Of a stretch of DNA of 64,000 bases, positions 34,122 to 43,098 are shown one piece after another. The DNA comes from a virus, in IMG/VR virus record IMGVR_UViG_3300030103_004816; one strand, written 5' to 3'. The position numbers were made by a program, and so were the translations under genes. The notes under the pieces were generated by a model, which saw only the letters and a list, made by a program, of their open reading frames with translations, ran no database searches and had not been told where the DNA came from. Within the stretch, counting starts at the first letter, position 1; each line of letters starts with the position of its first letter.

Positions 34122-34886
34122 TTAACTAATCTCATGTTTCGAGACAGCTAGACTCCAATCAAAGGAATCAACATAAGGTATAGGATCCTTATGACCTGCC
34201 TTTATAAAATTCATTACTCTTTCAGCACATGAAGGACATGTACCGCATGACTTATCTCCATCAGGATTATAGCATGTTATAGTACTAGAAAGCAACTCTA
34301 ATTTACCCATATCTTCAGCTATTTCAATTTCTTGCTTTTTACTTAGCTGACTAAAAGGAGCTACTATTTCTACTTTAAAGGTTCTATTCTGACTAGCAAC
34401 TGCATTAAGACTATCTACAAACTTCTGAGACGTATCCCAATAACCATATTCATCATGAACTTGCAGCCCAGTAAAGACATGAGAAGCTTTAGCAACTTCT
34501 GCTACTGACATAGTTAAAGATAACATAATCAGATTTCTAAAAGGTACATAGGTAGGTGGCTGCGGGTCGCCAAGGACGTCTTTTATATCTGGCATTTCCA
34601 CGCTTGTGCCACCTATGTTCGCTGACATAGGTTTAGCTATATCGCCAAGAATACTTAAGTCAAGTATCTTATGACGTATACCAAGTTTGTTACATAGTTC
34701 AAAAGCTTTCTCTAACTCTACTCTCTGCTTCTGACCATAATCATAACTTACAGCAGATACTCTATCTTTACCATATTTTTCTACTAGCATCATAGTCATA
34801 ACAGAAGAATCAAGTCCTCCTGAAAGTACTGCTAATACATTCTGATTAGTATCAGGTAAATTATTTAAAGCTTCAGTTAGATTCAT
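34122..34886 (-). CDS. queC: 7-cyano-7-deazaguanine synthase
   Basis: SGGLDS, YGQK, TYVPFRN, TCY...CGTCPSC. Confidence 0.95.
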   Translation of the reverse strand: MNLTEALNNLPDTNQNVLAVLSGGLDSSVMTMMLVEKYGKDRVSAVSYDYGQKQRVELEKAFELCNKLGIRHKILDLSILGDIAKPMSANIGGTSVEMPDIKDVLGDPQPPTYVPFRNLIMLSLTMSVAEVAKASHVFTGLQVHDEYGYWDTSQKFVDSLNAVASQNRTFKVEIVAPFSQLSKKQEIEIAEDMGKLELLSSTITCYNPDGDKSCGTCPSCAERVMNFIKAGHKDPIPYVDSFDWSLAVSKHEIS

Positions 34887-35076
34887 TTAGTACCTTTATT
34901 CCCATTACATAATTTTCTGCTGCATTCTCTGCCCATATCTCTGCTTTACCAGGATATGTTTCCTTTGCAACTTCTTTTCCGTCTATAAAAAATACAGCTC
35001 CATAACAACCATTCTCTACGAAAGTTCTAGCTGTTTTTTCACCGTCCATATATTCACTTAAAAATGTTTCGCTCAT
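34873..35076 (-). CDS. Hypothetical protein
   Basis: Coupled ORF, AENAAENYVMG motif. Confidence 0.6.
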   Translation of the reverse strand: MSETFLSEYMDGEKTARTFVENGCYGAVFFIDGKEVAKETYPGKAEIWAENAAENYVMGIKVLNESN

Positions 35077-36008
35077 TATTGCCTCGCTGTTTTTCTATGA
35101 GGTATATCTGCCTCAACTAAAGTAGAAGCTATCTTATCTATTAGATCTTGCGAAGTAGCTCTGATAGGATTAATATCTATACCACCTCTTCTAGTATATA
35201 AGCATGCTACTAATATTTCAGTATCATCTTCTAATATATCTCTTAGTCTTTTAAATATACACTCACATATTTCCTCATGGAAATGATTCTCTTTTCTCAT
35301 ACTAACTATATACTTCATAAGAGATTCAGGAGTAACACAATCTTCTCCTTCTATATGAATATATACATCACCCCAATCAGGCTGGTTAGTAATTCTACAA
35401 TTAGATCTTAATGCACTAGATGTAACCTGAAAAGGCATAAAGCCAAGCATAGGAGCATGCTCTAGTATTTTAGGATCTTCTTCGTATTCAACAAATTCTA
35501 TATCATCTTGTTCTATAAGAGACTCTAATCTAACAAAGTGACCTTTGATAGGAGCAGCAGGTAGTTCATTCTCATCATCATAATGGAACCAAACATCTAC
35601 ATCACACTCTAAAGCATCTCTTAGATCATCTTCTATCATTTGCTTAGCTTTGACTATAGCTCTAGTTAAACTATTACCAAACCTATGCATATTAAATGAG
35701 TTAAGATATAACTTTAACGATTTAGATTCAACTATACATTCACTATCAGACGGGTATACTATTTTTACTACACCGCTAACAGGGAATCCATTATCTAATA
35801 AAAATGATACTTCGTAACAGTTCCAGGTATCAAAACCTACAAACGGTAAATCATCTTCATTAATATTATATTCTTCTCTATTAAGTACTCTTGGTACCGG
35901 AACAAGCAAGCTTTTATCAGCTCTATCAGGAGTAACATAAGGCTTAACTATAGAGCCGTCTCCTGCTTTACCTAAATGTTTACTAACAATTTTATCTAAT
36001 TTTTTCAT
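35076..36008 (-). CDS. queF: NADPH-dependent preQ0 reductase (bimodular QueF)
   Basis: ESKSLKLYLNSF QueF motif, SNCRITNQPDWG, HFHEE, YTRRGGIDINP. Confidence 0.95.
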   Translation of the reverse strand: MKKLDKIVSKHLGKAGDGSIVKPYVTPDRADKSLLVPVPRVLNREEYNINEDDLPFVGFDTWNCYEVSFLLDNGFPVSGVVKIVYPSDSECIVESKSLKLYLNSFNMHRFGNSLTRAIVKAKQMIEDDLRDALECDVDVWFHYDDENELPAAPIKGHFVRLESLIEQDDIEFVEYEEDPKILEHAPMLGFMPFQVTSSALRSNCRITNQPDWGDVYIHIEGEDCVTPESLMKYIVSMRKENHFHEEICECIFKRLRDILEDDTEILVACLYTRRGGIDINPIRATSQDLIDKIASTLVEADIPHRKTARQ

Positions 36009-36532
36009 TTTATTACCTTCATTATTTGATCTAGTCTTTCTCTAACAGATCCAGATACTCTAACTATCTCTCTAGGCATTTCACTAATATAGCCTTCAAA
36101 TAATTCTACTATCTCATCTCTAAAGCTAGGATCAATTGATCTCACACCATCATCTACTATTTTAAACTCAGGTGGTATATAAAATATATAATCATATTCA
36201 TGTATAATCTTATCGTAGATAGCTTTTACTATATCAAGAGTATCTTTACTAACCTTTTTATGTAGATGTAAATAAGCAGTATATACTAATCCATCTAAGG
36301 CAGTTCTATCAGTTAACATATCATTATACATGAATACATTGAATACATGCTTTTGCATGATTAGTTCTTGCGTTAAGTCAGAACCAGCTTCATTTATATC
36401 TAGTCCTAATTTAATAAGCTCTCGAGTCACTTCATCGCATATAGCATACGTCTTAAATTTTTTCTCAGACCTTAACGCGTTAAGTAAAGTAGTCTTACCT
36501 ACTGATTGAGCACCAGTTATTCCTATCTTCAT
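36005..36532 (-). CDS. P-loop nucleotide kinase (AAA_28/NadR-like)
   Basis: GAQSVGKTT, DRTALD, DDGVR. Confidence 0.8.
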   Translation of the reverse strand: MKIGITGAQSVGKTTLLNALRSEKKFKTYAICDEVTRELIKLGLDINEAGSDLTQELIMQKHVFNVFMYNDMLTDRTALDGLVYTAYLHLHKKVSKDTLDIVKAIYDKIIHEYDYIFYIPPEFKIVDDGVRSIDPSFRDEIVELFEGYISEMPREIVRVSGSVRERLDQIMKVIK

Positions 36533-37038
36533 ACTTTACCTATCAAAAATGATGACCATAAATTTATAGCCAGTTGTCTTAATTCTTCTATCAAATCTTT
36601 CTCACTTATACCTTTCTTAATATCATGAACAGCTACCATTTGAGTCTCACCAGTATCTACACCTTCATCTACTTGATGAATAACAACACCAGTACTATCT
36701 AAGCCTAACTCTAAAGCTTTCTTCTGAGGATCTTTACCTCTTAGTTCAGGATACTTAATAGTATCACCAGGATGAACGTTATACATAGTCTTAGATATAG
36801 CAGCTTCAGGTACAATTCTATTATAACCATGCAAGGTTACAAAAGGATCATCGTCAGCGCAAGCAATTAACCAATCATGTATATCTTTTGCTTCCATATA
36901 AGATACTTTACTTCTTAAACGCTCATCAATTTTAGTAACTTCAAATTGATTAGTAACTATATGATCAGGCTCTTTACCTAACGTATCTATAACTGAAGCT
37001 AGTTCGCTTCCTGAATGACTAAAAATTGCTACCCACAT
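36529..37038 (-). CDS. PurN-like formyltransferase (candidate DpdN)
   Basis: FSHSGS, LHGY, NVHPG, GVVIHQVDEGVDTG. Confidence 0.85.
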   Translation of the reverse strand: MWVAIFSHSGSELASVIDTLGKEPDHIVTNQFEVTKIDERLRSKVSYMEAKDIHDWLIACADDDPFVTLHGYNRIVPEAAISKTMYNVHPGDTIKYPELRGKDPQKKALELGLDSTGVVIHQVDEGVDTGETQMVAVHDIKKGISEKDLIEELRQLAINLWSSFLIGKV

Positions 37039-37823
37039 ATATTTTCTCTAAACTTTAACATATTATAGAATACACTATACTGATGTTCAACCTTTTCTTC
37101 CATTAAAGTAAACAATTTAACTGACTCTTTATCATTTAAACCAAATACTCCATCTTCTAATTCTTCGTACTTAATATTTTTCATACCATGCACTACAGGA
37201 TTAGAAGTATCAATAGTATCAATCCAGTCATACTCTTTATATGCTGTAAACTCCTGAGGTAAACCAGCTCCTAATAGATGATGATCTTTCTCAGTGTTTA
37301 TTATATTCTTATCTAACATATCACTAAGTAATTTTTGCCTACCTTTCATCCATGATACGTATTTATTCTCTTCATCAGGAAATAAATCTTCATAATAACT
37401 ATAGTCAAATGATATAGCAATTATATCTGCATTTTCATTCATATAATTATAGCATTCGATTATTTCATCCCAATCTTTACCTTGAACAACACCAATTTTG
37501 AGACCTGGTAAGTCTTTATATCGTTCCATCCATGAACTAAAGTTCTTAATTGTTGTATCTTTCTGTTCCAATGCATCTGGTACGATATAAGCAGAAGGTT
37601 TTAATTGCTTTATCCAAGCAGCAAACTCATCCGCATTGAAAGCCTCACCAAGCTCAAAAATTGAATTATCAAGAATAGTATATCTACCTTTCTTTTTAGC
37701 TTCTACGAAGTGATTATAGTATGCAGGAAGTTCTTCAAAAAGATGAACTAATGCATAATCATAGTCAGTACTTTCACTGACCTTATCGATTATATCTAAA
37801 GGTGCTTCGTGGGCTATTCTCAT
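37029..37823 (-). CDS. TGT/DpdA-like TIM-barrel protein (candidate DpdA3-type)
   Basis: ILDNS, VPD, GVVQG, HLLG, IDTS motifs in TGT order; located inside que cluster. Confidence 0.7.
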   Translation of the reverse strand: MRIAHEAPLDIIDKVSESTDYDYALVHLFEELPAYYNHFVEAKKKGRYTILDNSIFELGEAFNADEFAAWIKQLKPSAYIVPDALEQKDTTIKNFSSWMERYKDLPGLKIGVVQGKDWDEIIECYNYMNENADIIAISFDYSYYEDLFPDEENKYVSWMKGRQKLLSDMLDKNIINTEKDHHLLGAGLPQEFTAYKEYDWIDTIDTSNPVVHGMKNIKYEELEDGVFGLNDKESVKLFTLMEEKVEHQYSVFYNMLKFRENICG

Positions 37824-38062
37824 TCGAAATAATTTTCTACTATATCTACTAGTTCTTTGTATTCAGCTATTTGTTTAAACTCATGCTCTAAAGAAGACAT
37901 TATATCAGGATGGTCAGCTACACCAACTTGCTTTTGTAATAATACTTCTACATTCAAAACGTGCTTAGAGATATTAGCTGTAAATAATTGTTTACTAGCT
38001 GATAGTAATTCATCTCTAAGATCTACTTTATTAACCTCTACAGGTTTCTGTTCAATACTCAT
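37820..38062 (-). CDS. Hypothetical protein
   Basis: NVEVLL...VGVADHPDI motif. Confidence 0.65.
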   Translation of the reverse strand: MSIEQKPVEVNKVDLRDELLSASKQLFTANISKHVLNVEVLLQKQVGVADHPDIMSSLEHEFKQIAEYKELVDIVENYFE

Positions 38063-38802
38063 TATCCTTTTCCTCCAGCATACTGCTGTTGTAGCATGAT
38101 ATCATCGAAGAACTCCTTCTTAACATCAGCATCATTAAATCTACCTTTGAGTACGGTAGTCTGGGTTAGAGAAGAATGAGCCATAATACCTCTATTCTCA
38201 CAACAACCATGAACTGCATGAATATAAACAGCTAGGTCTTCAGTCCCAGTTGCAGCTTGCAGCTCTTTTACAATTTCATTACATAATTGTTCTTGCAAAG
38301 TACCTCTTCTAGCTACCCATTGAGCTATTCTAGTATACTTTGATAATCCTATAACCATTTTATCAGGTATAATACCAATATAAGCTATACCTACTACAGG
38401 TTGATGATGATGAGAGCACATAGATCTAAGTTCAGATCTTACTACTAACATTCCATCATACTTATTATCATCTTCATTAGGGAATGCAGTAGCAGCAGGC
38501 TTCTCAAAATAACGACCTCTCATTAGCTCGTTAATATACATCTTAGCTAAACGTCTAGGAGTACCCATAGCATTAGGATCGTTCTTCCAATCAATAAGTA
38601 ATCTAGTAAGCACTTCTTCAAATGCTTCCGATACTTCGTCTATAAGTTTATCTCTACCAGACTCGGTAAGAATTTCTGCTATATTATCATTAGACCAGGC
38701 TCGTAAGCCTTTCTCTTTTATCATCTTCCAATATAGCTCATGTACTTTATTATCAGTCATAGCTGTATTATAACCTATTTGCTTATCACTTTCAACTGTC
38801 AT
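38062..38802 (-). CDS. folE: GTP cyclohydrolase I
   Basis: TPRR, SMCSHH, GLSK..R, LQE, HGC...RG. Confidence 0.96.
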   Translation of the reverse strand: MTVESDKQIGYNTAMTDNKVHELYWKMIKEKGLRAWSNDNIAEILTESGRDKLIDEVSEAFEEVLTRLLIDWKNDPNAMGTPRRLAKMYINELMRGRYFEKPAATAFPNEDDNKYDGMLVVRSELRSMCSHHHQPVVGIAYIGIIPDKMVIGLSKYTRIAQWVARRGTLQEQLCNEIVKELQAATGTEDLAVYIHAVHGCCENRGIMAHSSLTQTTVLKGRFNDADVKKEFFDDIMLQQQYAGGKG

Positions 38803-39250
38803 TTGGTTCTCTCCTATAAATAGCTGAATTAGCACCATGCTCCATTACTTCACAAGATACACAATAGCATCTTCCACCTGATTTTCTTTCGACTACTTCA
38901 TTAGCTTTTACCCATGCATGATATGCAAACTTTTCGCATCCTACTCCATCCATAATAACTATGTCTATTAGTCCTTTTTTATCTAATAATATAAAATCAT
39001 CCATAGCTGGATCATCTTTATCTACAGCAGTCTTATGATCAAAATTATCTTTAAGCCATTTTTTTAGCTCTCCTAGATCACCAAAATCAACTGCCCAGTT
39101 CTTATTATCTAATTCTGTAGCCGCAAAGACAAACCTAAATGCTAAAGCATAACCATGTATAAGACTACAATGACTATGCGTAGCATTAGGCTGTCTGAAA
39201 GCACATGAGAGGCCTGACTCATGCCCGTATGTTTTTGTACTTAAATACAT
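38792..39250 (-). CDS. queD: 6-carboxytetrahydropterin synthase
   Basis: HCSLIHGY, VDFGDL, FDH, GCE. Confidence 0.92.
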   Translation of the reverse strand: MYLSTKTYGHESGLSCAFRQPNATHSHCSLIHGYALAFRFVFAATELDNKNWAVDFGDLGELKKWLKDNFDHKTAVDKDDPAMDDFILLDKKGLIDIVIMDGVGCEKFAYHAWVKANEVVERKSGGRCYCVSCEVMEHGANSAIYRREPNDS

Positions 39251-39622
39251 CTATGCTCCTATAATGTAAATTATTAATGCGTAAGTTAAAAAATGTAGAT
39301 ACTGATCAACGCCTTGAAGTATCCAATAATATGTTTGACTATCAGTTAGTTTATATTTTTTCCATATATTACTTTTTACGTAATCAATATGGTAATGAAT
39401 AACACCATCTATTATAGCTAATATAACTGCTAAAAAGTTACTTACTAAAAAAGGTATTAAAACTAACGCTGTTCCTATAGCGTGTGAGCTCGCATGAGCT
39501 ATTCCACCAGGTGCTCCATATTCAGATTTATCTCTTATCATCCACATACGTTGCAAAAAATAATCCGCTATAGTATGCTTAAGCATTAATAAAATAAATA
39601 CTAATAATAATTGTTCATACAT
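39251..39622 (-). CDS. DUF3307-like membrane protein
   Basis: H..ADY.LQ, H...H, HYHIDY.K, DQYLH. Confidence 0.8.
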   Translation of the reverse strand: MYEQLLLVFILLMLKHTIADYFLQRMWMIRDKSEYGAPGGIAHASSHAIGTALVLIPFLVSNFLAVILAIIDGVIHYHIDYVKSNIWKKYKLTDSQTYYWILQGVDQYLHFLTYALIIYIIGA

Positions 39623-39624
39623 AA

Positions 39625-40095
39625 TCACTTGTCCTCCCACCAGAACTTATACCAGCTCTTCTCCTTTGAGCGTTGTATAGATAGGTCAAAAAAATCAACC
39701 ATCAGTTCTTGATCTGAATTATAAATTAAAGAAGCAATACTTATATTATCTTTAGGAAAATCGCCCCAAGATTCAAAGAGCGTTTTGATAGTTTGACCTG
39801 AGTCAACTATATCATCTATTATAAGATACTTTGCTCCATTATTCAAGTCTTCTGGTATCCATTCTACTATTTCTTTTTCACCAGAATCCCTCGTTGACCA
39901 TACTAAAGGTGTTACTGGTATATCTAACTTATGAGATAGAAACACTGCAGGTATTAAACCACCTCTAGATAATCCTATTATTCTACTATAAGGACTTCCT
40001 ACAGCCATTATATTGTTGTATATCTTTTCGATACCTTCTTCAAACGCTTCATGACCGTAAACGATCTCTTTCTTTTTAAACATAATATTACTCAC
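39625..40095 (-). CDS. Purine phosphoribosyltransferase (Gpt-like)
   Basis: GLSRGGLIPA, LIIDDIVDSGQT PRPP motif, FWWE terminus. Confidence 0.9.
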   Translation of the reverse strand: MSNIMFKKKEIVYGHEAFEEGIEKIYNNIMAVGSPYSRIIGLSRGGLIPAVFLSHKLDIPVTPLVWSTRDSGEKEIVEWIPEDLNNGAKYLIIDDIVDSGQTIKTLFESWGDFPKDNISIASLIYNSDQELMVDFFDLSIQRSKEKSWYKFWWEDK

Positions 40096-41113
40096 TTAAA
40101 AATTTTACTCTGTCTCCAAATCCTTTAATTATTTTTAATTCCTCTAAAGGTTTGTGGTTATCACCTCTCTTCTCATCATCTGCATAGTGATGTTCAGTTC
40201 TATCCCACCAATCGAAGCCATGGAGCCAGACTTCATAATTCTGTTTTAAATAATAATCTATTGCTATAAGACCAGTACTTGGAGCTTTTAGCCCGTAGTA
40301 GTTAAAGTCTTCTATTTTATGAACCACTTTTCTTCTATCAGTTAATTTTTTAAATAGATCACATTCATTTTCATTAAACCAGCTATGGCAAATGACATTA
40401 TCAAATTCATTAATATCTTCTATATGTTTATCCATGCAAGTAAACCATACATTAGTTTTACTGCCTGTATACTTTTCGTATCCTTTAGTAGTAAAAGAAT
40501 TAAATCTTACTACTTCATCAAATGAATCTATTTCTTCTCCTAACTCTTTATCAAGAATAGAAGTTCCGTTACCTACTAATAAAACTTTCTTTTGTTTAGT
40601 ATACCAAGTAACTAATACTAATCTTTTTCCTTTAGTAACTTTACTTACACTATGAAATACATTATGTTCATATTCAATAGTCTCACCAACTTCTTGTTTA
40701 ACTATTACAGGTATAATTGGATCACCTGGAGTATAATCACCGTCTCTATATCTATTAAGTACATCAGGAGTAACATCCCAATCAAGCTTATAGTGAGGTT
40801 CGTAAATTATAATATCACCACCCTCTAGGTCTTCTACATCTACTAATGTAATAGCAGTTTTAAATATCTCATCATTATTATCCGTATGAAGTCTAGTAAA
40901 AGAGTTTACTGGATACTCTAAAAAATATTGAGAGTATATGCTAAATCCATCTCTATTGAATTCTTGCATCCAATTATCTCTAGGTATATCTGCTTTATAG
41001 AGATAATGCAAATTATAATATCTTTTTACTTTCTGTTTTTCAAGACTATTATATAAGTTTTTTAAAACTTCAATATCTACAGGTGTACTTACTTGCTTAT
41101 AATAATCAGACAC
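40088..41113 (-). CDS. Fusion of 2OG-Fe(II) oxygenase and GT29 (sialyltransferase-like) domain
   Basis: HTD...GG...HSVSKVTKGKRLVLVTW, then VGNG...LGEEIDSFDEVVRFN...GSKT, PSTG, GFD, HY...H. Confidence 0.8.
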   Translation of the reverse strand: MSDYYKQVSTPVDIEVLKNLYNSLEKQKVKRYYNLHYLYKADIPRDNWMQEFNRDGFSIYSQYFLEYPVNSFTRLHTDNNDEIFKTAITLVDVEDLEGGDIIIYEPHYKLDWDVTPDVLNRYRDGDYTPGDPIIPVIVKQEVGETIEYEHNVFHSVSKVTKGKRLVLVTWYTKQKKVLLVGNGTSILDKELGEEIDSFDEVVRFNSFTTKGYEKYTGSKTNVWFTCMDKHIEDINEFDNVICHSWFNENECDLFKKLTDRRKVVHKIEDFNYYGLKAPSTGLIAIDYYLKQNYEVWLHGFDWWDRTEHHYADDEKRGDNHKPLEELKIIKGFGDRVKFLSE

Positions 41114-41993
41114 CTATTAGGTTCCCCCATAAGTAAGTATGTACTCTAGCTGATACATTATAACCTCTCTGAAATGCTTCTTTAGCTACATCACCATCAC
41201 ATAGCTTCTGACCTTCTACTGTAGCTCCTACAGGCATAATCCATATAGGCCAATCTACATGATAGTCTCTAAACATCTCTATAGTTTCTTCTAACTCTTT
41301 CCAAGTTTCTGGTTTGCCATCAACAACAAATTTAAGCTGACCTCTATTAGTAAACATCTGATATCGTTCTACTACTTCAGGTCTTATAGCTCTTTTTCTT
41401 AGCTCACCAGATACATTATGTAATTTAGGACTGCATGATATAAATAGTTCACTGCCCCATACATCTCTATACTCCTGCCAGAACTCTATTACTTCAGGTC
41501 TTATAGTTTGAGTACCATTAGTTTCATAAGTAACATACCTAGGATAATCTCGTTCTTCTATCCAATGCTTCATCATATTCATACTACATATTTGAGCATG
41601 CTTCATAAAAGGTTCACCACCAGTAAAACACATATGTCTTTCACCCCATCTACCTTTATTATATTTGTTAGTAAACGCATCTCTTACTTTATTAGCTATT
41701 TCTACAGCAGTACCATTATGAGTTAAATGCTTAAATTTTTTAGACCATGAATAAGAACTATCACAGCCAAATTCCCAGACGGGTAAATCTTCCATACGAT
41801 TAACTTCTATTATATCAAAGTCTTTATATGGTAGTTTATAAGTAGAAGGATCAGTAGGGTCATCTTGACCGAAACCATTACATTGTAAGTTACATAAAAA
41901 GAATCTTAACCATGCGGTAGGATATCCAGTATAATGACCTTCACCTTGAATAGAATCAAATATTTCAGAATAAGCGTATGTTTGTTCGCTCAT
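41106..41993 (-). CDS. queE: 7-carboxy-7-deazaguanine synthase (radical SAM)
   Basis: EIFDSIQGEG, CNLQC...CDS, TGGEP, ETNGT, SPKL, RVH. Confidence 0.94.
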   Translation of the reverse strand: MSEQTYAYSEIFDSIQGEGHYTGYPTAWLRFFLCNLQCNGFGQDDPTDPSTYKLPYKDFDIIEVNRMEDLPVWEFGCDSSYSWSKKFKHLTHNGTAVEIANKVRDAFTNKYNKGRWGERHMCFTGGEPFMKHAQICSMNMMKHWIEERDYPRYVTYETNGTQTIRPEVIEFWQEYRDVWGSELFISCSPKLHNVSGELRKRAIRPEVVERYQMFTNRGQLKFVVDGKPETWKELEETIEMFRDYHVDWPIWIMPVGATVEGQKLCDGDVAKEAFQRGYNVSARVHTYLWGNLIGV

Positions 41994-42526
41994 AGTTCCT
42001 CTTTAATTTGTTTAACCCAATCCATTATTCTAAACGGAGAGAGTGTTGGTTCGTTATCTTCATCTATAGCTAATCCATAAAAGGTGTTCTCATCTTTAAG
42101 TCCGTTAGACTTATCAAATTTAAAACCTTGAGTAGAAGTTAGCCCTATCAACCTTCCGCCATTCTTTAAAACTACTTCAGCTAACATACCTAATCCATCT
42201 ACAAAATTATCTGCATACCCTACTTGGTCTCCTAGACCATATAAAGCAACAGTTTGTCCGGTAAAATCTATCTTGCTAAATCTTTCATAAGATTCATTCC
42301 AATCATCAGAATATTCGCCATAAGTATCTAGTCTTGGTTCACACCAAGTTGGAGTTCCAAGTATAAGCAAGTCAGCTCTCCAATCATCAGGAGAGGTATG
42401 ATCTACTTTTACTAGGGAATATGTTTTAGGTTTGAAATGAGTTATTATATCTTCACCGATTGACTTAGTAAAGCCAGTTTCAGTACCATATATTAACTTT
42501 AAATTTATCTCGGACTTGAGATCCAT
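41990..42526 (-). CDS. fldA: Long-chain flavodoxin
   Basis: GTETGFT, GTPTW, GLGDQVGYADNFVDG, GLAIDEDN. Confidence 0.93.
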   Translation of the reverse strand: MDLKSEINLKLIYGTETGFTKSIGEDIITHFKPKTYSLVKVDHTSPDDWRADLLILGTPTWCEPRLDTYGEYSDDWNESYERFSKIDFTGQTVALYGLGDQVGYADNFVDGLGMLAEVVLKNGGRLIGLTSTQGFKFDKSNGLKDENTFYGLAIDEDNEPTLSPFRIMDWVKQIKEEL

Positions 42527-42531
42527 ATAAG

Positions 42532-42567
42532 CTCCTAGTTTTATTTAAAATGTGGAAGGGCACATTT
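42532..42567 (-). promoter_or_regulatory. Leader hairpin with A-rich tail, reminiscent of preQ1-I riboswitch
   Basis: AAATGTG-CCCTTC-CACATTT-TAAATAAAACTAGGAG directly upstream of flavodoxin-queE. Confidence 0.35.
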
Positions 42568-42573
42568 GATATT

Positions 42574-43098
42574 CTATTTAGCTAATCTAGCTGCCTTCTT
42601 TATTAATCTTAATACTTTTTTCCATTTACGTTTAAATCTTTCTAAATGTATAGGATGAGCACGAGTAAAATATTCAATTCCATTTAGGTGATCTAACTCA
42701 TGCTGAAAAACTCTTGCGGCCATACCATCAAACTTTTTAGTACAGACATTCCCATATGGGTCTTTAAATCTTACCCTAATAAATCTTGGTCTTTTTATTT
42801 TTACATAAACACCAGGATAGGATAAACATCCTTCATCCATAGTTATATCTTCTTCGCCGAAGTATGTTATAACCGGATTATAGCAAACCATAGGAGGTTC
42901 TGAATACATACAAAACACTCTTGCTTGTACTCCTATCTGGTTAGCCGCAAGCCCTACACCCTTACCATCTTTCATAGCATTTATAAGTGTATGAGATAAC
43001 TCAACTGGGTCAGTAGAAGGGTTATCAAAATCAAAGTCAGGCATCACTGCTCTGAGCATATCATTATTATCACCTATTGGTATTATAGTTTTACTCAT
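42574..43098 (-). CDS. def: Peptide deformylase
   Basis: GVGLAANQIG, EGCLS, QHELDHLNG. Confidence 0.95.
   Translation of the reverse strand: MSKTIIPIGDNNDMLRAVMPDFDFDNPSTDPVELSHTLINAMKDGKGVGLAANQIGVQARVFCMYSEPPMVCYNPVITYFGEEDITMDEGCLSYPGVYVKIKRPRFIRVRFKDPYGNVCTKKFDGMAARVFQHELDHLNGIEYFTRAHPIHLERFKRKWKKVLRLIKKAARLAK

Follow-up and report, generated by a model that had tools for sequence, protein, structure and literature searches.

The DNA analysed here, referred to below as the window, comprises 64,000 nucleotides of the IMG/VR virus record IMGVR_UViG_3300030103_004816, and the element under study is the leader that lies in the 47-base gap ahead of its flavodoxin and queE-like genes, at the head of a 7-deazaguanine gene cluster. 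The source phage is a marine T4-like myovirus whose gp46 region is ~70% like those of pelagiphage HTVC008M, the Melnitz phages and cyanomyoviruses. All window features described in this work are on the minus strand, where positions 42567-42532 read AAAUGUG-CCCUUC-CACAUUU-UAAAUAAAACU-AGGAG, with 5 nt left to the flavodoxin ATG. The 5' arm of a first stem, P1 (AAAUGUG, 42561..42567), pairs with its 3' arm (CACAUUU, 42548..42554) around the 6-nt loop CCCUUC (42555..42560). Within this loop, CCU (42559-42557) is the 5' strand of a second helix, P2, and is followed by U42556 and by C42555, the candidate specificity base. Downstream of P1 come an A-rich linker, L3 (UAAAUAAAACU, 42537..42547), the last four bases of which (AACU) are invariant in relatives, and AGG (42534..42536), the 3' strand of P2, which gives the pairs U42557-A42536, C42558-G42535 and C42559-G42534. 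The Shine-Dalgarno sequence GGAG (42532..42535) has its first two bases within P2, AGGAG as a whole covering 42536-42532, and the spacer CUUAU leads to the ATG at 42526-42524. A look-alike of T4-type late promoters, CTAAATA (42575..42581), stands 7 nt ahead of P1 and overlaps the TAG stop (42574-42576) of a peptide deformylase open reading frame (ORF; 42574-43098; Pfam PF01327). A preliminary description made from the letters of this stretch had given the hairpin, the Shine-Dalgarno sequence, the ATG and the coordinates correctly, and both the late-promoter-like box (42581-42575) and the loop of just 6 nt (CCCUUC at 42560-42555) are as it had reported. The motif is a small RNA of about 30-40 nt that forms an H-type pseudoknot and is present as one copy in the window.

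The hairpin recurs in other phages. At three loci with flavodoxin orthologues it is kept with different stem sequences and an identical loop and tail. A pattern made of the conserved 12-nt top, GUGCCCUUCCAC, a gap of 5-30 nt and CUAGGAG was found in 107 viral contigs, in every one of which a start codon lies a few bases past GGAG. These contigs are not near-identical copies of each other, as they carry 55 distinct leader sequences and several gene orders, and the conservation holds across QueE-like proteins that are just 31-35% identical. The preliminary description had made its proposal depend in part on conservation in related phages, and this is what the 107 contigs display. The exact pattern gave 16 matches in 596 Gb of prokaryote genomes; 14 of them are GC-rich chance matches with no stem extension, and the two real ones lie on short phage-like contigs binned into metagenome-assembled genomes. 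When only GGAG was required in the tail, no genuine hairpin lacking CUAGGAG appeared among the matches listed, and the new loci (at least 82) were all GC-rich chance matches. A covariance model of the motif, built from 56 distinct leaders, scored the window copy at 59.2 bits and other real copies at 50-60 bits, as against 19.6 bits or less for 82 chance copies of the 12-mer. With the same model, no second copy was found in the window: the sole copy is at 42572-42532, and the next matches, at 15 and 14 bits, are tail-only and intragenic.

The position of the motif with respect to transcription and translation signals is also regular. The start codon is 6-10 nt downstream of AGG in 76 of 79 unique instances, and in 50 of the 79, P1 is preceded by an A/T-rich box (TAAATA, TATAAT, TATATA or similar) whose end lies 4-7 nt from its first paired base. 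The CTAAATA box of the window is a putative promoter.

Covariation in orthologous leaders, which the preliminary description had proposed as a check, was assessed in an alignment of 69 distinct sequences, after earlier versions on 56 or more; two variants, at loci L122 and L301, were left out of it. In P1, 93.5% of the cells are paired and four of the six aligned pairs show changes in both partners; the covariation score of 0.43 compares with 0.08 after shuffling (0 of 500 shuffles reach it) and with 0.105 at most in slid registers. The three outer pairs occur as all four Watson-Crick types and as G-U. Counted from the top, the third pair is C-G in 8 sequences and G-C in the other 61. The second pair, U-A, becomes A-U in L122 and G-C in L301, and the closing G-C (42561:42554 in the window) is the sole unchanging pair, in 69/69. 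G-U pairs are seen in P1 only when it is read as the sense strand, which points to a motif that would act as RNA and not as DNA. P1 is 4 to 9 bp long and its 4-bp forms, at -2.6 kcal/mol and 25% of the ensemble, are barely stable alone and would need extra stabilisation.

The bases that do not belong to P1 hardly vary. The loop is N-CCUUC in 58/58 unique instances of the search pattern, with a first position that is usually C and can also be A, G or U, and its last base is C in all 69 aligned sequences. The tail is AACUAGG in 66 of the 69 and AACUAUG in three variants. This invariance exceeds the need for a ribosome-binding site, because two first copies of double motifs keep the tail where it is not one: ACUAGG is followed by UA in the first copy of the L294 tandem, which has no ORF behind it, and by AU in copy 1 of L299. 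The three pairs of P2, between CCU of the loop and AGG of the tail, are 100% paired in the 69 sequences; three sequences have A-U as the middle pair, and the other 66 have C-G. The A-U pair belongs to the first copies of the tandems L307, L354 and L397, in which a CCAUCC loop stands with an ACUAUG tail (CAU:AUG) and the neighbouring bases are unchanged; a 15-base pattern search for the CCAUCC form gave at least three real instances. These three sequences differ in P1 (CGUG/CACG vs AGUG/CACU) and in the downstream gene, and therefore the variant is maintained and not decaying. The CCAUCC form also turns the UC before the 3' arm into CC, which may alter specificity.

The preliminary description had proposed a pseudoknot between the loop and the Shine-Dalgarno sequence with CUUC pairing to GGAG. 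The pseudoknot stands, in another register: CUUC:GGAG is ruled out by the L294 and L299 copies, which lack the trailing AG, and the compensatory CAU:AUG variant supports CCU:AGG. The geometry of the linker fits an H-type fold as well. The distance from the hairpin to ACUAGG ranges from 4 to 15 nt across instances, and L3 length rises with P1 length (Spearman 0.43, p 8e-4, uncorrected for relatedness), 4-5 bp stems having mostly linkers of 5-8 nt and 7-8 bp stems linkers of 10-13 nt. Such a relation is expected if the linker has to follow P1 along its length.

The motif is tied to one operon. At all 103 loci with enough downstream sequence (103/103), a queE-like gene is among the first three ORFs and folE, queF and queC follow. 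Past the opening gene, the operon runs through queE-like, often queD and a phosphoribosyltransferase gene, folE, the gene of a DpdA-like 264-aa protein, a formyltransferase gene, a kinase-like gene, queF and queC. The opening gene itself is queE-like in 65 contigs, a 56-63 aa hydrophobic ORF in 30 (one of them cut by the contig end), queD in 6, flavodoxin, as in the window, in 4, and a 251-aa UDP-glucose-dehydrogenase-like gene in 2. Several phages have two copies of the motif: in tandem with one base between them in L294 (666-726, minus strand), L307 (1597-1656), L354 (1525-1585) and L397 (5280-5340), at a distance of 224 nt in L039 and L076, and at one of 570 nt in L299 and L300. Riboswitches, too, occur in such tandem and double copies. 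In L039 and L076, the hydrophobic ORF and the next queE each have their own copy. The hydrophobic ORF (L015, L019, L039, L054 and ~25 more) has no Pfam match and a C-terminus like ...AEVLGIVEEIV. At L150 (2436-2465), downstream of a queE-like gene, a UAGAGG-CCUC-CCUCUA hairpin is followed by UAACUAGGAG and an ORF without assigned function; its loop could pair perfectly with GGAG, and this leader may be related to the motif, though diverged from it.

Taken alone, the window hairpin is ordinary, and the significance of the motif comes from the comparison with other phages and not from the single sequence. A 7-bp, AU-rich hairpin of this pattern with two mismatches is expected 0.47 times per window, the hairpin by itself has a free energy of -4.1 kcal/mol, and the fold of the 76-nt leader, with a z-score of -0.58 (-0.76 in a second estimate), is no better than that of shuffled sequence. 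A terminator scan around the site found no U-tract terminator. With Rfam in E-value mode, the only matches were to a small nucleolar RNA and a small RNA (E 2.7-3.8), elsewhere. As for ACUAGGAG as a generic phage ribosome-binding site, this was rejected: it occurs 3 times in the window vs 2.4 expected, and the other two occurrences are intragenic.

The preQ1-I aptamers are the known RNAs to which the motif comes close. They have an invariant G-C floor, a specificity cytidine before the 3' arm of P1, uridines in loop 1 (L1) that contact the ligand, and an A-rich L3 that lies in the minor groove of P1 (PMC10622847, PMC8752633). Type I aptamers have UC before the 3' arm and CUA in the tail, and their C31 reads a second, stacked preQ1 (PMC8752633; PMC11625349). 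In the type III leader of E. coli yhhQ, the loop is UUCCCUCAC, with C9, C10 and U11 paired to G30, G29 and A28 in the ribosome-binding site; the U6C change alone costs 35,000-fold in affinity (PMC10622847).

With type I aptamers, such as that of Carnobacterium antarcticum (PMC8752633, PMC11625349), the phage motif shares the H-type pseudoknot, the G-C floor, UC before the 3' arm, an A-rich L3 followed by A-C-U-A-G-G, which corresponds to A30, C31, U32, A33 and G34 of type I, the first two Shine-Dalgarno bases within P2 and the tie to preQ1 biosynthesis genes. Its tail, A-A-C-U-A-G-G, equals the type I tail base for base. It differs in its loop (6 nt vs about 12), in a P1 of 4-9 bp vs about 5, in having neither U6/U7 nor A12 for the ceiling triple, in matching no Rfam model and in having been found on phage contigs only. 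With type III it shares a tiny pyrimidine-rich loop in which CCU pairs with AGG of the ribosome-binding site, a cytidine ahead of that strand, a specificity C just before the 3' arm of P1 and a linker of variable length ahead of a conserved tail. Compared with the E. coli loop, however, the phage loop N-CCU-U-C lacks U6, U7 and one base of loop 2, and in the phage tail a CU takes the place of the two E. coli adenines, A26 and A27, that touch the ligand and the floor; moreover, the type III aptamers of gamma-proteobacteria stand ahead of a transporter gene, whereas the phage motif precedes biosynthesis genes. Judged by the hallmarks of the Rfam preQ1-I family, RF00522, the motif has the P1 and P2 of an H-type pseudoknot (by covariation in the 69 sequences), the closing G-C with a cytidine 5' of the P1 3' arm (69/69), an A-rich L3 with conserved adenines and the type I CUA tail, and a place in the leader of queuosine/preQ1 genes (103/103 loci).

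On the strength of these sequence comparisons, we lean towards reading the leader as a compact, phage-specific, preQ1-I-like translational OFF riboswitch, to be regarded as putative. The preliminary description had listed a compact riboswitch variant among its options, and this option fits the invariant loop, closing pair and AACUAGG together with a covarying stem. The more specific proposal that the motif constitutes a riboswitch class or subtype peculiar to phages, with an aptamer that would be the smallest known in nature (a core of ~30 nt and a 6-nt loop) and a 7-deazaguanine pocket without L1 uridines, is more tentative, and we would give it somewhat less than an even chance. The putative ligand is most likely preQ1 or preQ0, preQ1 being the most logical choice in view of the queF gene of the operon.

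In such a mechanism, the transcript would probably start just upstream of P1 at the CTAAATA box, which would place the structure at its 5' end. A free 7-deazaguanine base would stack between P1 and P2 and so stabilise the weak 3-bp P2, and C42555, perhaps together with C42538 of the tail, would recognise the ligand through Watson-Crick pairs, in the manner of C17 and C31 of type I. The ligand-bound P2 would hide AGG, which is part of the ribosome-binding site, and might thereby lower the translation of flavodoxin and, via the 4-nt overlap of the two genes, of QueE; the flavodoxin is a plausible reductant for the radical SAM enzyme. The outcome would be a feedback control of the pathway that feeds the 7-deazaguanine modification of the phage.

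Several observations weigh against this reading. The loop has 6 nt, compared with 9-12 nt in known preQ1-I aptamers, and the L1 uridines are absent: between P1 and the P2 strand there is a single base, which can be any of the four. Their absence is a serious objection in view of the cost of U6C in the E. coli aptamer. Any pocket must therefore differ from the known ones. RF00522 stays below its gathering score (39 bits) throughout the window, and the search with the Rfam preQ1 model, which the preliminary description had put forward as a check, gave no match at E up to 10 in 42400-42700 or at 10 other motif-bearing loci. Given the Rfam non-match, the small loop and the missing L1 uridines, we keep the motif out of RF00522. 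The preQ1-I likeness seen in the preliminary description holds for the floor pair, the UC, the linker and the ACUAGG tail, and fails for the Rfam model, the loop size and the L1 uridines. Moreover, the near-total invariance of the core is partly imposed by the search patterns, the only search without hairpin constraints being the one anchored on the tail and the QueE start, and the P2 covariation may reflect a single evolutionary event. The motif is also absent from close relatives, namely L004 and L005, with flavodoxins 63-64% identical, and L115 and L117, with QueE-like proteins 70-75% identical, and is therefore dispensable. Among 75 queE-like loci picked regardless of the motif, 6 have a canonical copy within 1.5 kb upstream (5 directly ahead of queE, 1 ahead of a flavodoxin gene) and one has the L122 variant. 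In the cultured phages KVP40 and Aeromonas Ahp1, a QueE-like gene (43-45% identity) is present and the motif was not found in their genomes.

The invariant loop and the tail next to the start codon would also suit a site for a protein. As a translational operator, the leader would be bound by a protein of the phage or its host, which would grip the loop together with the closing pair and the neighbouring single strand and so keep the ribosome off its binding site. Two examples in T4, the gp43 operator, made of a hairpin and the Shine-Dalgarno region, and the gene 32 leader pseudoknot, are each bound by their own gene product, and the phage motif is similarly a small conserved RNA structure at or over the ribosome-binding site of a T4-like phage gene. 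That the uridines of L1 needed by the solved aptamers are missing, and that the motif travels with one conserved operon holding several proteins without assigned function, would agree with this explanation. In contrast to the T4 operators, however, the gene that follows is not always the same one here (flavodoxin, queE, queD or a small ORF), and the conserved bases resemble those of a metabolite pocket, the unpaired ones coinciding with the ligand-contacting set of type I preQ1-I aptamers. A hairpin-to-ACUAGG distance that tracks stem length and the compensatory change between loop and tail favour an RNA tertiary fold, and Pfam and PHROGs searches recognised no RNA-binding domain in the cluster. 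We consider a protein-bound operator unlikely, and place it first among the alternatives to the riboswitch.

Next in probability, and unlikely too, comes a pseudoknot that needs no ligand, a constitutive 5'-terminal structure that would tune translation, shield the 5' end of the mRNA or do both. The structure begins a few bases past a promoter-like box and would hence lie at the mRNA 5' end, a partial masking of the ribosome-binding site by P2 requires no ligand in principle, and no known aptamer has so small a loop. Nevertheless, this explanation fails to account for unpaired U, C, A, A, C and U that stay invariant while the outer stem pairs drift; a 3-bp P2 on a 4-bp P1 of -2.6 kcal/mol is too weak alone, and the exclusive tie to one metabolic operon, along with the tandem copies, points to sensing. 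A plain hairpin, whether stabilising or a terminator, or the decayed remnant of a bacterial preQ1-I riboswitch that came in with the operon, options of which the preliminary description had entertained the stabilising hairpin and the decayed riboswitch, would be consistent with the unremarkable fold z-scores (-0.58 to -0.76) and the lack of an Rfam match, but is very improbable, being contradicted by covarying conservation in more than 100 contigs and across QueE-like proteins down to 31% identity, by the missing U-tract, and by real exact copies that in the prokaryote genomes occur only on two phage-like contigs, with no bacterial source apparent.

In the literature library that we searched, no paper describes this element or ties phages, DpdA or 7-deazaguanine to a preQ1-type riboswitch, and the motif is not in Rfam 15. 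What is distinctive here is the flavodoxin-first arrangement, the CCU:AGG register with its compensatory variant, the tail kept away from a ribosome-binding site and the relation between stem and linker length. If ligand binding by the putative riboswitch is true, it would show how far a metabolite-sensing fold can shrink, and the riboswitch would govern a phage 7-deazaguanine cluster and not a queuosine metabolism of host type. Even with a protein effector, the motif shows where the regulatory head of this widespread kind of phage 7-deazaguanine operon lies and is a handy sequence tag to find such operons in metagenomes. The natural variants (tandem copies, CAU:AUG, 4-bp vs 7-bp stems) suggest test mutants.

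The preliminary description had placed the leader at the head of a que cluster, and FolE, QueD, QueE-like, QueC and QueF are indeed encoded in the window cluster. The first gene under the leader, flavodoxin (41990..42526), matches TIGR01752, the long-chain flavodoxin family, at 160 bits (cut-off 146.75), and Pfam PF00258. Its stop overlaps by 4 nt the gene of a QueE-like radical SAM protein of 295 aa (41106..41993; phrog_2076, E 1.7e-54), of which only the first ~40 residues match solved or curated QueE (structures 6nhl, 4njg, 5tgs). The rest of the co-oriented cluster extends over 34122..41113 and was annotated by Pfam, NCBIfam and PHROGs searches. It encodes, in order, a 341-aa protein, a phosphoribosyltransferase, a DUF3307 protein, QueD/PTPS, FolE, an 80-aa protein, a 264-aa DpdA/TGT-like protein, a formyltransferase, a kinase-like AAA_28 protein, QueF and QueC.

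The 264-aa protein (37029-37823) has no Pfam match and belongs to phrog_19058, which has no assigned function. By protein-language-model features (Atlas), it adjoins clusters of queuine tRNA-ribosyltransferase/transglycosylase (0.97) and a cluster 17% of whose members contain PF23859 DpdA (0.94), and its gene comes after folE in nearly all motif-bearing operons. It is probably a DNA transglycosylase, an assignment offered as a lead only. The purine-type phosphoribosyltransferase (39625-40095), the thymidylate-kinase-like AAA_28 protein (36005-36532) and the formyltransferase (36529-37038) together hint at steps beyond base exchange, either the conversion of base to nucleotide or the formylation of preQ1 towards a DNA base of formyl-preQ1 type.

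The 341-aa protein (40088-41113) has a sialyltransferase-like (GT29) motif at residues 173-225 and an N-terminal half weakly like 2OG-Fe oxygenases, and its gene is found between queE-like and phosphoribosyltransferase genes in about a dozen other loci as well. The FolE ORF as listed (38062-38838) overlaps the QueD/PTPS ORF (38792-39250) by 47 nt (38792-38838); its Pfam match starts at residue 71, and the true start may be farther downstream. On the other side of the leader, the peptide deformylase gene separates the 7-deazaguanine cluster from gp46/gp47-like recombination nuclease genes.

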